IMG/VR virus record: IMGVR_UViG_2923360383_000002
DNA from: a virus
Taxonomy: Duplodnaviria; Heunggongvirae; Uroviricota; Caudoviricetes
DNA: 35,428 bases
Reading direction: 5' to 3' (one strand)
Shown: positions 24,165 to 34,916 of the stretch, piece by piece
How positions within the stretch are numbered: position 1 is the stretch's first letter
Layout of the letters: every line of letters begins with the position of its first letter
Program-made: the position numbers and the translations under genes
The notes under the pieces: generated by a model
The model's input: only the letters and a program-made list of their open reading frames with translations
Told to the model about the DNA's origin: nothing
The model's database searches: none

Positions 24165-24380
24165 TTACTCTCCCCGTGCAGCCTTACGCTTGTCTTCTCT
24201 GATTTTGAAGTACAGATTTGTCAGATAAGTCAGGAAGCCCAGAACCAGACTCCCCAGTACACCAATCGCAGCCCACTGTGACGGACTGACCTGATCAAGC
24301 CACTGTAAAAACCAGTAGCCAGCACTGCCTGCGGAGGTGCCGTAGGCAATGCCCGTTGAAATTTTGTCCATGGATTTCAT
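24165..24380 (-). CDS. Pinholin, phage 21 S-type (class II holin with dual start)
   Basis: [63 protein letters not shown] is essentially the S21 sequence; GGAGGTG RBS. Confidence 0.9.
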
Positions 24381-24671
24381 AGCCTCACCTCCGCAAATAA
24401 CGGATGGCGTAGTTTTACACTGAGAAATGAAAGGGATTTGAAAAGAAAAAACCGCAAAAACGGGCGAAACGATATATACAGTAAGGAAAGCACTCTATCC
24501 AACAAACCACCCACAGTTAATCGGAATAAAAGCAGAGTGCTTATGAATGATCGCCTGCCCGAAGGTTAGTATTTCTGCACAGCAATTTTGCAAAAAAAGC
24601 GATCATTCATAACTTAAACGTCTTTCAGTCACTCCGGGATTTCCCATCATCGCAGACTGAAAGACTCTAAC

Positions 24672-24746
<75 letters not shown>

Positions 24747-24749
24747 ATA

Positions 24750-24825
<76 letters not shown>

Positions 24826-24827
24826 AC

Positions 24828-24904
24828 TGGACCGCCACCGGGGACTCGAACCTCGCACACTCAACTTAAAGGGTTGACGCTCTTTCCTGATGAGCTAGTG
24901 GCGG
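24828..24904 (-). tRNA. tRNA-like gene; anticodon UUU (Lys) by position, with atypical C33 and mismatches - possibly divergent or a pseudo-tRNA
   Basis: 7-bp acceptor stem (CCGCCAC/GTGGCGG), TTCGAGT T-loop, CCA end; anticodon loop CCTTTAA; T-stem has one mismatch. Confidence 0.45.
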
Positions 24905-24905
24905 T

Positions 24906-24981
24906 TGGTGGCCCTTGCTGGATTTGAACCAGCGACCTGGCGATTATGAGTCGCTCGCTCTCACCACTGAGCTAAAGGGCC
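24906..24981 (-). tRNA. tRNA with CAU anticodon, ileX-like (Ile2 if lysidine-modified, otherwise Met)
   Basis: GGCCCTTTAGCTCAGTGGTGAGAGCGAGCGACTCATAATCGCCAGGTCGCTGGTTCAAATCCAGCAAGGGCCACCA; resembles E. coli ileX more than elongator Met. Confidence 0.8.
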
Positions 24982-24990
24982 GGGCGCAGG

Positions 24991-25019
24991 ATAATAACGT
25001 TACGAAATCAATGTTGCAA
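24991..25019 (-). promoter_or_regulatory. Candidate sigma70 promoter for the tRNA cluster
   Basis: On the minus strand, TTGCAA, 17-nt spacer, TATTAT, ending about 9 nt before the first tRNA 5' end. Confidence 0.4.
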
Positions 25020-25277: not shown

Positions 25278-26159
25278 ATGGAGAAGTCAACTTCCTTTAA
25301 GGTGTTTTATGACGCCAATGATAAAGAATTGTCAAAGCATGCTATTGACGCTGAAACACTTGGTAAATCAATACTTTCCATGACAACTCTTATTAATAAA
25401 GCTGATAGCTTGTTAAATGAGGGCAACAAATCTGTAAAAATTTTAGTCACTGCCCCCATCCAGAAAGGATCTGTGGGTATTGCATATACTGTAGTGCAAC
25501 TCCTACCGCATGCAATTGACGTTCTGCAAACTATCGGGATTGTTGGAACTGTGGGCGCAACAGCTCATGCCACCGCTTTATCGTTAATAAGACAATTAGG
25601 CTCAAAAAAAGTTGTTTCGATTACCAAAAAAGCAGGAACAGATAAGGCTGTTCTTGAATTTGAAGATGGTGAGATTGAATGCTCATCAGCAGTTGCAACC
25701 TTGGTAACTGAGCCAACAATTCGGGATGCGTTGATTTCTGTTGTTCAGGCTCCTTTAGATGGTAAAGACTCTCCCATTTTTAAAATTGTAGATGAGAATG
25801 ATAAAGTTTTGCTCAAGCTTGAAGGAGAGCAAACTGAAGAGATTAAACCCCTTCCCAGAGGGACGCTTTTGACCAAAACAGTTGAAGAAAAAGAGGTTAA
25901 TGTAAAATTTACCCAAGTTAACTTTCATAGTGAGAAGGGGTGGAGGATGGACTACAACCAAGATGAGCACTCCGTACTACTTACAGACTATGAGTTTTTA
26001 GCTAAAGTAAGGCAAGCAGAGGGAACGATCACTAGTGAAGATATGTTTTCTGTGCTTCTAGAAACAACACGTACAACTTCCGCACGAGGACAAACAGAAA
26101 AGTATGTTATCAAGAAAGTACTTCGTCATCGCGTGATTCAAGGGAAAAAATTGATCTAG
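25278..26159 (+). CDS. Hypothetical soluble protein (293 aa), first gene of the plus-strand cargo operon
   Basis: ATG with AAGGA RBS; AT-rich codon usage unlike flanking phage genes; no Walker or other motif recognised. Confidence 0.6.
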   Translation: MEKSTSFKVFYDANDKELSKHAIDAETLGKSILSMTTLINKADSLLNEGNKSVKILVTAPIQKGSVGIAYTVVQLLPHAIDVLQTIGIVGTVGATAHATALSLIRQLGSKKVVSITKKAGTDKAVLEFEDGEIECSSAVATLVTEPTIRDALISVVQAPLDGKDSPIFKIVDENDKVLLKLEGEQTEEIKPLPRGTLLTKTVEEKEVNVKFTQVNFHSEKGWRMDYNQDEHSVLLTDYEFLAKVRQAEGTITSEDMFSVLLETTRTTSARGQTEKYVIKKVLRHRVIQGKKLI

Positions 26160-26174
26160 CTTTGGTAGAAACTA

Positions 26175-26438
26175 ATGATTCAGCAACAGCTTTTACAAAT
26201 CGTTTTTTGGTTGGGGGTGCTTGTAAGTCTCCCGACCTTCTATCGCTTTGTTTATGCTGGTTCCGCGTTGTTGTGGCGTAAAATTTTTCCTACAAAAATC
26301 GTAGAACTAAGGTTTTACAGTGCTGAACGCATGCTTGAAAAAACGATTACTATCCACTTAGATGCTAAAGATGGAAAGAAGATCGTTGAGCTAATTGATG
26401 ATGCAACCGCGCACAGGCAGTCAAATAATGAGCGGTGA
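26175..26438 (+). CDS. Hypothetical small membrane protein (87 aa, one N-terminal hydrophobic helix)
   Basis: Starts 16 nt after the ORF A stop; hydrophobic segment LLQIVFWLGVLVSLPTFY. Confidence 0.5.
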   Translation: MIQQQLLQIVFWLGVLVSLPTFYRFVYAGSALLWRKIFPTKIVELRFYSAERMLEKTITIHLDAKDGKKIVELIDDATAHRQSNNER

Positions 26439-26826
26439 TAAAAAAAGCATTTTAAGTAGTAATTCTGGTCTAACAACAGGCGGGATTGGCGCAGTTCTAA
26501 CTACATTGGTACCACTATTGGCGCCTGACCCTAATAGTGAATGGAGAGCTTTTTTGTATGCCCTCGCCCCATTAGTGTCAGCAATGCTAACCTACATTAT
26601 GTTGTATGTTATCAATCGACATGGACTTGAGTCTCCAGCCGAAGCCGCCCTAAGAAATCGCCTTGAGCGAGATTTAAAAGGTATTGATGAGCAACTGAAA
26701 AGCCCTCATCTAAGCGAGAAATTTAAAGCTGAGCTTATTGCTGATCGGGAAGAAACTGTTAGAAAGATTGTTAACATTGGTAAGAATGTAGAAGTTTTAC
26801 CTATTGAAGTTACTAAAGAAGAATAA
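26398..26826 (+). CDS. Hypothetical membrane protein (about 132-142 aa, two hydrophobic helices plus charged C-terminal region)
   Basis: Overlaps the ORF B 3' end (alternative starts ATG 26398 or ATG 26428); hydrophobic segments GIGAVLTTLVPLLAP and AFLYALAPLVSAMLTYIMLYVI. Confidence 0.5.
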   Translation: MMQPRTGSQIMSGDKKSILSSNSGLTTGGIGAVLTTLVPLLAPDPNSEWRAFLYALAPLVSAMLTYIMLYVINRHGLESPAEAALRNRLERDLKGIDEQLKSPHLSEKFKAELIADREETVRKIVNIGKNVEVLPIEVTKEE

Positions 26827-26845
26827 AACGGCCCTTAGGCCGTTT
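26825..26845. terminator. Hairpin between the convergent plus-strand operon and the Q gene (likely bidirectional terminator)
   Basis: AAAACGGCC-ctta-GGCCGTTT; T-rich on the minus-strand side (TTTTATTCTTC). Confidence 0.55.
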
Positions 26846-29100: not shown

Positions 29101-29256
29101 TTACTCCTCAGGTTCGTAAGCTGTGAAGACAGCGACCTCCGTCTGGCCGGTTCGGATTCGTACCTCGCAGAGGTCTTTCCTCGTTACCAGTGCCGTCACA
29201 ATGACGGTTAAACAGATGACGATCAGGGCGATTAGCATCGCCTTTTGCTGCTTCAT
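29101..29256 (-). CDS. hokD: Hok/Gef-family type I toxin (HokD/RelF-like, 51 aa)
   Basis: MKQQKAMLIALIVICLTVIVTALVTRKDLCEVRIRTGQTEVAVFTAYEPEE matches HokD; AGGAG RBS; in-frame upstream extension to 29313. Confidence 0.85.
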   Translation of the reverse strand: MKQQKAMLIALIVICLTVIVTALVTRKDLCEVRIRTGQTEVAVFTAYEPEE

Positions 29257-29493
29257 AGCCTGCTTCTCCTTGCCTTTCGGCGCGTAAGAGGCTAACCTAG
29301 ATTTGCCGTTCATAGATTGAGCCTCAGATTAATGTTAAGCGTCTTGCCGGACGCGTAATGTTAACTGGGGCTTTTCTCTATCTGCCTTTCAGTGTTCATG
29401 CCTGAGACAGATAGCCTCAAGCACCCGCAGCCATTCTACTTAACTCACGTCACCTCGCCAATATGAAATCAATCAGAAAGGTGATCCATAAAA

Positions 29494-32319: not shown

Positions 32320-33282
32320 TCACCCCCTGAATCCCGGCGGTATTTCAGTGTCCGGTTCAGAAATGTGATTCACGCAACGCTGCGCAGGCGAACGCCCCAG
32401 GCGGATAACCAGTTCATCCCATTTTTCCCGGAGTTTTGCCGGACTCATGATGTTTTTTACCCAGAACGAATCCCGCTGGAGACGCCCAAACATTTCACAA
32501 ATTTGTCTGTGAGTTCTGCCATCCAGCATCCGCATTGTGCGAACGTCATTGGCCCATGCTGTCCAGTTGGGTTCTTTCGGTCTAGTGATCTCGCCATCAT
32601 CGCTGGCCGCCTGCTCGTAAAGACTCACGATTCGTCCCCAGATCCACTGTGCGCACACCAAATCTTCCTGACTTCCCCACTGGCGTTTTTTCGCACTGAA
32701 CACAACCGCGTCAGGGTGTCGGGTTAAAAAATCCTGTTCAGCCGTCTGCGGGTCCGGTTGCGAAGCGTCCGGACAAGAAGATCTTTTATCTGACGGATCA
32801 GGTTTTAATACTGACGGATCGGGGTCAATCATCGCCCCCCTAATCGGCAGTTTTTTATCAACAGTTGATCCATCAAAATTTGACGGGTCAACCGTTGAGG
32901 GGTCAATATTTGACGGGTCAACTGTTAACGGGTCATTTTTTGCCGGGCTAATTTTTCTTTTCGGTTTATATGACTCACGCGCCGCCGCCGCAGCTGCTTC
33001 GAGTTTTTCCACATTAAGCCGATAGATATTGCTTACATTACGCCCACCGACCTTACGCTCTTCCTTCGTCAGCCAGCCCTCTTTCGCCAGTTCTGCAATA
33101 GCCGATTTCACTGTGGATTCACTTCTTGCACCGATCTGACGCCGGATAGTTTCAATGGCAGGCCATGACACGCCCTCGTCATTGCTGTAGTCTGCAAGAC
33201 GGGCCATAACCGCCACCCTGGATAAGATCATGCCGGTGAAGGCGCACCCTTCCCAGACAAGACCATGAAGCTTGCTGCTCAT
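32320..33282 (-). CDS. Replication initiator (O-like / Rac YdaU-like) with N-terminal winged helix and internal repeat peptide
   Basis: Start taken at ATG 33282 with GGGGG RBS; repeated DPSNIDPSTVDPSNFDGSTVD segment is encoded by the iteron DNA. Confidence 0.7.
   Translation of the reverse strand: MSSKLHGLVWEGCAFTGMILSRVAVMARLADYSNDEGVSWPAIETIRRQIGARSESTVKSAIAELAKEGWLTKEERKVGGRNVSNIYRLNVEKLEAAAAAARESYKPKRKISPAKNDPLTVDPSNIDPSTVDPSNFDGSTVDKKLPIRGAMIDPDPSVLKPDPSDKRSSCPDASQPDPQTAEQDFLTRHPDAVVFSAKKRQWGSQEDLVCAQWIWGRIVSLYEQAASDDGEITRPKEPNWTAWANDVRTMRMLDGRTHRQICEMFGRLQRDSFWVKNIMSPAKLREKWDELVIRLGRSPAQRCVNHISEPDTEIPPGFRG
32790..32940. repeat. Iteron-like direct repeats (candidate origin of replication) inside the initiator gene
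   Basis: At least six copies of a TGACGG(A/G)TCA-like unit, followed by an AT-rich stretch at about 32934-32970. Confidence 0.55.
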
Positions 33283-34060: not shown

Positions 34061-34480
34061 ATGGTTCATGAAGATAAAGCGCGTAAAGAGTTCGCCAGTA
34101 GGCTTGCGCTAGCCTGTGAAAACGCTGGTTATGAACAACATGGAAGGCAGGCAGAAATTGCCCGTCGAATGAAATTAACACCAAAAGCGGTTAGCAAATG
34201 GTTTAATGGCGAAACAATTCCTCGCCGGGAGAAATTAAGGGAATTAGCAACACTAATAGGAACAACACCAACCTATCTTTTGGGAGAGGATACAGAAGAA
34301 AGTGGACAGGTACGTTTCTATCAGGAGTTAAATCCAAGACAAAAAATCATCATTGACCTTCTGGACGAGCTCCCTGACAGTGAGACAGATGAACTTTTAA
34401 AAACTCTTGAAGAGAAAAAACAGAAGTACAATGCAATTTACGAAGAGTTAGCACGAAAGAAAAAACAAAAAGCCTCTTAA
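34061..34480 (+). CDS. CI-like prophage repressor (XRE-family HTH, RacR-like; no peptidase domain)
   Basis: HTH-like GRQAEIARRMKLTPKAVSKWFNGETIP; divergent from the Cro-like gene. Confidence 0.7.
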   Translation: MVHEDKARKEFASRLALACENAGYEQHGRQAEIARRMKLTPKAVSKWFNGETIPRREKLRELATLIGTTPTYLLGEDTEESGQVRFYQELNPRQKIIIDLLDELPDSETDELLKTLEEKKQKYNAIYEELARKKKQKAS

Positions 34481-34916
34481 ACCAGCATAAATCCGGTAGC
34501 GCCTTCCTCCGGGTTTGTGCTTCACTTTATCCCATCTCATTTTTTTACACACAAAATGTACTAAAAGTACTTTACAAAAATGAACGCAAAGTACATTATA
34601 TACCTGCCACCCACCCCGCCCCACAGAATGCAGGGCAATACTTCGAGTTACCAGGCAGTGGTCAGGGGTTAAGTAGCCAGCCCGAGGCGTAAGAACATGA
34701 CGGCAGGGTTCAACTTTAATAACTATGCAGCAGGTTTTTGTTCCGCTACCCCGGCGTTAAGGGGAAACAGAGGATTTCTCAGTGGGCGAAGTCAAACATC
34801 AGAATGGAAGGCATCCCGGGATCGGCAAAGAAGCAGCAATGGCGCTTTATATTGACATCAGCGCCATTGCCGGACAGGTAAGAATTATCAGAGCGGTAAC
34901 TAAGCGGTATGCGCCT

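Follow-up and report, generated by a model that had tools for sequence, protein, structure and literature searches.

A three-hairpin non-coding RNA associated with a phage tRNA operon in lambdoid prophages of enterobacteria

We analyzed a 35,428-base-pair (bp) stretch of phage DNA (IMG/VR record IMGVR_UViG_2923360383_000002; the whole stretch is called the window below), with attention to two long perfect inverted repeats that follow an array of transfer RNA (tRNA) genes. Both repeats are helices, named here P1 and P2, within a non-coding RNA of three hairpins and about 185 nucleotides (nt). It runs from 24671 to 24488 on the minus strand and measures about 230 nt when its spacer and terminator are included. 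This P1–P3 RNA is a phage tRNA-operon-associated non-coding RNA, and its structure is conserved by compensatory changes and is specific to the tRNA-sense strand. The best explanation, to which we give a probability of roughly 0.55, is that it is a stable non-coding RNA matured from the trailer of the tRNA operon and acting in trans, a function that we infer.

The inverted repeats are parts of three adjacent RNA hairpins

A preliminary description of this DNA, made from the letters alone, had pointed out the two repeats, and a repeat search of the window found both as claimed:

24541–24554 / 24599–24612: 14-bp inverted repeat, 100% complementary, 44 nt between the arms
24620–24630 / 24655–24665: 11-bp inverted repeat, 100% complementary, 24 nt between the arms

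They lie, as had been stated, downstream of the tRNA array, which consists of four minus-strand tRNA genes at 24981 to 24672 (ARAGORN and Rfam); the distance from tRNA-Gly to the 11-bp arm, given there as 7 nt, is actually 6 nt (CCA end at 24672, arm start at 24665). The whole window was found to contain just three perfect inverted repeats with arms of 11 bp or more that lie within 80 nt of each other, and two of them are these. By our own estimate, about 0.007 perfect 14-bp inverted repeats with a spacing of up to 50 nt would be expected by chance in a sequence of this length. Two neighboring features had been overlooked: a third hairpin, with a 9-bp perfect repeat (I5), that adjoins at 24488–24542, and a terminator-like hairpin followed by a U-run at about 24441–24464.

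Folding of the minus-strand RNA gave the following hairpins:

24614–24670, minus strand: hairpin P1, holding the 11-bp repeat; −23.2 kcal/mol, z = −4.5
24541–24612, minus strand: hairpin P2, holding the 14-bp repeat; −25.6 kcal/mol, z = −5.4
24488–24540, minus strand: hairpin P3, holding repeat I5; −20.2 kcal/mol, z = −4.5

RNA folding, proposed earlier as a check on the repeats, bore them out, as each hairpin was more stable than its dinucleotide shuffles and none of 200 shuffles was as stable. Over the 291 nt from tRNA-Gly to the start codon of the holin gene (24381–24671), the minus-strand RNA folded with −90.4 kcal/mol (z = −3.9), whereas the plus-strand RNA of the same region reached only −64.8 kcal/mol. 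The internal loop of P1 (UGCGAUGAU / GGAGU) is asymmetric and invariant, and the hairpin also has a small GGG/CCC stem inside. The outer stem of P2 (13–15 bp) encloses an 8-bp inner hairpin whose 9-nt loop, AAAUUGCUG, sits inside the near-invariant stretch UUUUGCAAAAUUGCUGUG; P2, which is 72 nt long, also has a conserved ACCUUYGGG segment. In P3, a basal stem of 8 bp is topped by an internal loop and then by two short stems, and the upper part carries the near-invariant GGGUGGUUUGUUGGAU; together with P2, P3 makes up a core of about 125 nt.

Compensatory changes and strand-specific pairing support a structured RNA

We examined covariation in two alignments, one of the P2+P3 core (A2; 29 diverged sequences) and one of P1 (A3; 19 diverged sequences). 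RNAalifold on A2 returned 38 pairs in four helices, with compensatory double changes at ten pairs. Pairing was preserved in 97.5% of the 1078 cells of this structure, compared with 36–51% when the 3′ partners were slid by one to three columns. Changes on both sides of a pair occurred in 56 cells against a shuffle mean of 18, and the observed values were reached by none of 500 shuffles; since shuffle controls overstate significance among related sequences, the argument is carried by the slid-partner control. Helices 1 and 2, which belong to P2, were 97–100% paired with compensatory change at five pairs, and helices 3 and 4, which belong to P3, were 96–97% paired with compensatory change at four of the eight basal pairs. 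Compensatory substitutions beyond those in the shifted-register controls were therefore found for P2+P3, and the corresponding support for P1 was weaker. The 11-bp stem of P1 was nonetheless kept in A3, with compensatory changes at four of its 11 pairs (six of the 22 pairs tested) and many switches from A-U to G-U; a 5-bp outer extension of P1 is specific to the lineage of the window.

The A2 structure contained 138 G-U cells but only 10 A-C cells, and it was 97.5% paired on the tRNA-sense strand compared with 85.6% on the opposite strand. The pairing is thus strand-specific, which points to an RNA transcribed the same way as the tRNAs and late genes and away from a DNA palindrome; the protein-binding site suggested in the preliminary description, taken as a site on DNA, is not supported. 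Comparison of the window with RMDEC332 (92% identity), GN05064 (87%) and OW1E2 and HK639 (about 77%) showed that the stems vary by compensation while the loops are invariant, and several of the P1–P3 loops are invariant across genera. Among the roles proposed earlier for the repeats, that of a small, structured RNA is strongly supported by these covarying helices, one-strand G-U pairs and cross-genus loops.

The RNA is widespread in enterobacterial prophages and largely unannotated

Conservation in related prophages, which had been named as a further check on the repeats, was looked for and clearly found. The 291-nt region is present in 539 of 5426 complete Escherichia coli genomes, always on the chromosome and mostly with 95–99% identity, and none of these 539 copies carries an annotation over the region. 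Among 50,697 phage records searched by blastn, six contain it with 77–99% identity, representing five distinct phages including HK639; the HK639 copy is 77% identical to the window and is the only place in HK639 with a blastn match. Each of two motif scans of IMG/VR returned at least 120 stretches, and the matches listed comprise 72 distinct 280-nt versions, with 29 representatives below 93% identity. When one genome per species was surveyed by a pattern scan followed by a covariance model check, true copies were retained in six species: E. coli, Shigella flexneri, Enterobacter hormaechei, Citrobacter sedlakii, Yokenella regensburgei and Phytobacter ursingii. The ninth pattern match of this survey, in a gammaproteobacterial metagenome-assembled genome (L170), was a chance match. 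P1 is optional within the family, as six distinct versions are without it and have the tRNA CCA joined straight to P2.

In two phage records, ON470583.1 (18592–18882) and ON470580.1 (16397–16688), coding sequences for a “hypothetical protein” are annotated over the structured RNA region, and these calls are probably spurious. The RNA is carried by about one-tenth of complete E. coli genomes, ST131 and avian-pathogenic strains among them, and also by Shigella and other enterobacteria; it is either unannotated or hidden beneath such probably spurious calls. Its interest rests on the solid covariation support, on its occurrence in about 10% of complete E. coli genomes and on HK639, a culturable carrier phage and a concrete candidate for testing; in addition, the covariance model could serve as the starting point for an Rfam family and make the annotation of prophages better.

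P1–P3 trails a tRNA operon with its own predicted promoter and terminator

In most of the copies examined, the RNA follows closely on the 3′ end of a tRNA, which is usually tRNA-Gly. Of 30 representatives, 26 have a tRNA array immediately before it, typically in the order Met(CAU), a variable slot, Thr(UGU) and Gly(UCC), and the gap from the last tRNA is about 5–6 nt to P1, or about 1–4 nt to P2 in copies without P1. The corresponding features of the window are as follows:

24991–25019, minus strand: predicted sigma-70 promoter of the tRNA operon (promoter scan); TTGCAA, 17 nt, TATTAT, GC-rich discriminator (CCTGCGCC)
24906–24981, minus strand: tRNA-Met (CAU), first of the array (ARAGORN; Rfam tRNA, 72.5 bits)
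24828–24904, minus strand: tRNA-Lys (UUU), in the hypervariable second slot (ARAGORN; Rfam, 44.4 bits, the lowest of the four)
24750–24825, minus strand: tRNA-Thr (UGU) (ARAGORN, Rfam)
24672–24746, minus strand: tRNA-Gly (UCC) with encoded CCA, last of the array (ARAGORN, Rfam)
24441–24464, minus strand: predicted weak intrinsic terminator; 4-bp stem (CCGU/GCGG) followed by UUUUUUCUUUU, −4.5 kcal/mol

tRNA-Met begins 9–10 nt after the −10 element, and the layout of the predicted promoter is one that we take to resemble those of ribosomal RNA (rRNA) and tRNA (stable-RNA) promoters. The −35 element (TTGCRN), the 17-nt spacing, the −10 element (TAYYAT/TAATAT) and the GC-rich discriminator were kept in 17 of 17 distinct upstream sequences. 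Beyond the promoter, the upstream sequence is unrelated among diverged loci and often ends in an intrinsic terminator. The promoter scan of the window found no promoter-like site between the tRNAs and P1 except for one inside tRNA-Gly.

At the other end of the operon, the terminator of the window (GCCCGU-UUUU-GCGGUU) has decayed from the family consensus GCCCGC-UUUU-GCGGGC. A strict intrinsic terminator lies within about 155 nt after P3 in 47 of the 72 unique versions, two terminators were found in 10, and equivalent terminators were annotated in the HK639 record by its authors. P1–P3 therefore has the position of a 3′ external transcribed spacer (3′ETS): it is on the strand of the tRNAs, after the final CCA and ahead of the terminator.

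The tRNAs themselves vary among relatives. The second slot of the array holds Lys, Arg, Phe, Leu or odd tRNA-like genes; in eight loci (L024, L067, L106, L130, L137, L145, L154 and L162), ARAGORN called a “tRNA-???” with a two-base anticodon in this slot, and these calls would appear to be tRNA-like genes with unusual anticodon loops. In RMDEC332 (L004, 3291–3361) and L156, the tRNA before the RNA has changed from Gly(UCC) to Val(UAC) by anticodon substitutions, with its body and 3′ end unchanged, and in Yokenella (L169, 2303–2377) a tRNA-Glu(UUC) occupies the position directly before the RNA. The tRNA-Gly of HK639 (L001, 3177–3248; about 44443–44514 in the record) is degenerate, with a broken acceptor stem, a score of 27.5 bits against the Rfam threshold of 29 and no ARAGORN call, yet P1–P3 is intact there. 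The RNA is thus maintained even where the adjacent tRNA has decayed.

The promoter, tRNAs, RNA and terminator form a mosaic module

Pfam matches placed the unit in a lambdoid late region on the minus strand with RusA, Q, holin, DUF1327, lysozyme and Rz. Its flanking genes in the window are the following:

27230–26862, minus strand: Q antiterminator (PF06530)
24165–24380, minus strand: class II (phage 21 type) holin (PF04971, E = 1.4e-35), the first lysis gene downstream and outside the RNA

Upstream of the unit, the Q proteins fall into four mutually non-matching Pfam families (PF06530, PF06323, PF03589 and PF06576), and the holins downstream also fall into four families (PF04971, PF16080, PF16931 and PF05106). 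Since unrelated Q and holin families flank it, the segment comprising the promoter, the tRNAs, the RNA and the terminator is an independent mosaic module. It is an RNA-only “moron” between Q and the lysis genes, located where morons classically insert after Q, compact and mobile, with a hypervariable slot in its tRNA array, and it moves independently of the Q and lysis modules.

P1–P3 matches no known RNA family

The preliminary description had also allowed for termination structures, and this option does not fit P1 or P2. We took an intrinsic terminator to have a G+C-rich stem of about 5–12 bp, a loop of 3–8 nt and a U-tract directly after the stem. The loops of 24 and 44 nt are unfit by this definition, P2 is without a U-tract, and terminators follow P3 instead; the terminator scan reported neither hairpin, P2 being followed by GCACUCU, which belongs to P3, and P1 by GUUUAAGUUAUG.

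At gathering thresholds, a search of the window against Rfam 15 (cmscan) returned the four tRNAs and a sok match elsewhere and nothing on P1–P3, and permissive filters with E up to 10 likewise gave nothing credible there. AgvB, AsxR, STnc100, Esr41, IsrK, sok and the other Rfam families were thus without a match to P1–P3. The HK639 copy gave sub-threshold Rfam matches to istR, isrB and rsmX only, extending from the terminator into the 3′ half of P3, which we read as probably terminator-driven. Comparison with PasA, PasC and PasD (PasD1) of E2348/69 by blastn with word sizes of 7 and 9 yielded chance-level matches only. Covariance model R1, representing P2+P3, scored 126 bits in the window and 145 bits in the late region of HK639.

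A small protein was also considered. Short open reading frames (ORFs), such as MMGNPGVTERRLSYE in P1, shift frame between variants, and 1-nt indels occur in the conserved block; a coding function is therefore unlikely. Neither a hammerhead nor a k-turn could be placed in the internal loop of P1, where the core sequences were unfit by eye and no Rfam ribozyme model matched. In the literature that could be searched, no paper was found with the conserved motifs as DNA or RNA, and keyword searches found nothing relevant. The P1–P3 family is absent from Rfam 15 and the searchable literature and is apparently undescribed.

Comparison with known RNAs

Phage T4 encodes two stable RNAs, “species 1” and “species 2” (rnaC and rnaD), with its tRNA cluster. 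Like them, P1–P3 is a structured non-tRNA RNA of about 100–200 nt at the end of a phage tRNA cluster, and maturation from a tRNA precursor is presumed in both cases. No sequence similarity was detected, however, as the blastn search of the 50,697 phage records gave only lambdoid relatives, and T4 is a virulent phage using a middle or late promoter, whereas the unit in the window belongs to a prophage, has its own predicted promoter and lies at the junction of Q and lysis genes. In E. coli, the 3′ external transcribed spacer of the glyW-cysT-leuZ tRNA operon gives rise to an RNA sponge, 3′ETS-leuZ. Both RNAs are located in the trailer of a tRNA operon, after the final CCA and before the terminator, and release by RNase E is known for 3′ETS-leuZ and would be expected for P1–P3. 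They differ in build: 3′ETS-leuZ has about 50 nt, consisting essentially of the terminator plus a seed, while P1–P3 has about 185 nt and three hairpins before a separate terminator.

The small RNAs (sRNAs) rrA, rrB and rrF of E. coli are encoded between the dual terminators that close its rRNA operons (PMC8144298). They resemble P1–P3 as small RNAs at the tail of a stable-RNA operon and are made from the operon's own transcript, as P1–P3 would be, but the P1–P3 RNA precedes the terminators. Pas sRNAs are encoded next to prophage holin genes (bioRxiv 10.64898/2026.05.13.724894), and P1–P3 shares with AgvB, AsxR, PasA, PasC, PasD and STnc100 the niche between Q and holin, frequent tRNA neighbors and a restriction to prophages of Enterobacteriaceae (PMC4104026; bioRxiv 10.64898/2026.05.13.724894). 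The sRNAs at this moron site are 50–240 nt long, bind Hfq and are often convergent or antisense, whereas the P1–P3 RNA has the orientation of the late operon and is joined to the tRNA array.

Proposed function and alternatives

In the explanation that we favor, the tRNA operon and the trailing RNA would be transcribed as one precursor, from which cuts by RNase P and RNase E-type activity would free the tRNAs. The sequence after the CCA reads AG|UUAG, or AG|UUUU in copies without P1, and resembles the preference of RNase E. The trailing RNA, of about 190–230 nt, would persist with both ends capped by hairpins and the terminator, and would act in trans via its invariant loops. A protein partner seems more likely than seed pairing of the Hfq type because the RNA is nearly all folded and its sole open stretch, between P3 and the terminator, is unconserved across the family. 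During lytic growth, after induction, the Q-modified polymerase would transcribe straight across the unit and on into the lysis genes. Provided that the RNA is stable and does act in trans, it would be a new player in RNA regulation between prophage and host, possibly in a tRNA-centered arms race of phage and host defense.

Several points weigh against this explanation. The activity of the promoter, the 5′ and 3′ ends of the RNA and its stability are all inferred. The sampled sequences are related to one another, and the conservation of stems and loops could be due in part to recent horizontal spread. Covariation in P1 is modest, its score being reached by 13 of 500 shuffles. The terminator of the window is weak, so that the RNA here may often continue into the holin mRNA. 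Within the window, no complement of the 16-nt conserved loops was found elsewhere with up to three mismatches.

A role in cis is possible, though doubtful as the principal one. The hairpins would then be a processing or stability element that caps the 5′-monophosphate end left when the tRNAs are excised from the Q-dependent late transcript, so that the mRNA for lysis and morphogenesis is shielded from 5′-end-dependent RNase E and the tRNA precursor from 3′ exonucleases. The great stability of the hairpins agrees with such a role, as do their unvarying orientation and location in front of the lysis genes and the start of a stable hairpin within about 6 nt of the tRNA 3′ end in nearly every copy, whether or not it has P1. 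Any stable hairpin would do for this task, however, which leaves the invariant loops, the internal loop and the three-hairpin architecture unexplained; moreover, one or two terminators stand between the element and the lysis genes, and what follows in some copies is a methylase gene or additional tRNAs, not a holin gene. The cis role and a trans function could coexist. We consider it unlikely that P1–P3 is an Hfq- or ProQ-dependent base-pairing sRNA or sponge, a sub-case of the trans-acting RNA that we favor, modeled on 3′ETS-leuZ or prophage anti-sRNAs, with its seed in the stretch between P3 and the terminator or in a loop. Such an RNA would share its moron site downstream of Q with the AgvB, AsxR and Pas sRNAs (PMC4104026; bioRxiv 10.64898/2026.05.13.724894), it would end in a terminator with a U-tail as P1–P3 does, and the spacer before the terminator is A/U-rich in copies of the HK639 type. 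That spacer is, however, wholly different between the window type and the HK639 type, the conserved bases are located in structured regions, and neither the Rfam sRNA families nor the PasA, PasC and PasD loci show any resemblance to P1–P3.

Antitermination in cis, as by the put RNAs of HK022 and HK639, appears very improbable. RNAs of the put type act on the terminators after them by contacting the zinc-binding domain of the β′ subunit of RNA polymerase. On this view, the hairpins of P1–P3 would attach to the polymerase as they emerge, enabling it to pass the terminators and continue into the lysis genes. P1–P3 and put (PMC9378689) have a superficial likeness, since both are adjacent stem-loops with conserved unpaired bases in lambdoid phages, located upstream of terminators, which number one to three in the present case and are followed by essential late genes; the carrier HK639 is also annotated with a putL-like RNA in its early operon. 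Yet model R1, with E values of up to 10 allowed, matched nowhere in the complete HK022 genome, nor at the annotated putL-like RNA of HK639 (34187–34312). Size and position differ as well: the core has about 125 nt (about 185 nt with P1) compared with about 70 nt for put (PMC9378689), and P1–P3 lies in the late region after the tRNA array, not just downstream of an early promoter. Every carrier examined encodes Q for late antitermination, and constitutive read-through from the tRNA promoter into holin would be expected to kill the lysogen. Hardly credible, finally, is a feature of the DNA itself (an operator, a site of recombination or of a mosaic boundary, or a palindrome arisen by chance) or a set of decayed tRNA genes. 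It is true that either DNA strand of a perfect inverted repeat folds equally well, that the element is placed at a mosaic junction and that P2 is as long as a tRNA (72 nt), but pairing is kept via G-U pairs that are present on the tRNA-sense strand only, and the helices are preserved by compensatory changes. Degenerate tRNAs were rejected because ARAGORN found the four upstream tRNAs only and the Rfam tRNA model gave no match in 24488–24671, even with E up to 10.

A more novel, though rather unlikely, reading is that P1–P3 represents a new class of phage protein-binding regulatory RNA that is co-expressed with variable phage tRNAs. One possibility is that this class might be a decoy or inhibitor of a host RNA-targeting factor, such as a tRNA-cleaving defense nuclease, an RNase or a tRNA-modification enzyme; if so, the tRNA array and the RNA would be one counter-defense or host-takeover cassette. 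A new self-cleaving or self-processing RNA that sets the 3′ end of tRNA-Gly is less likely.

Other features of the window

Between Q and the tRNAs lie three plus-strand ORFs (25278–26159, 26175–26438 and 26395–26826) that have no Pfam match. The largest, of 293 amino acids, matches the PADLOC candidate defense family PDC-S42 (E = 4e-27), and these ORFs may be a defense moron beside the tRNA/RNA cassette. On the minus strand at 26826–26845, a strong hairpin (AAACGGCC-TAAG-GGCCGTTT) with a T-rich tail lies 16 nt after the stop codon of Q and abuts the stop codon of the convergent plus-strand ORF. This hairpin is probably a bidirectional terminator and possibly tR′.

Elsewhere in the window, the Rfam sok antitoxin RNA matched at 29251–29426 on the minus strand with 110.6 bits (gathering threshold 59), which implies a putative hok/sok-type toxin-antitoxin locus in the early region of the prophage. 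A 33-nt imperfect palindrome at 32860–32926 (79% complementary, 1 nt between the arms) contains repeated TTGACGGGTCAAC-like units, and another perfect 11-bp inverted repeat (GCAATGGCGCT / AGCGCCATTGC, 13-nt loop) is located at 34836–34870; the two could be operator, origin or terminator features.

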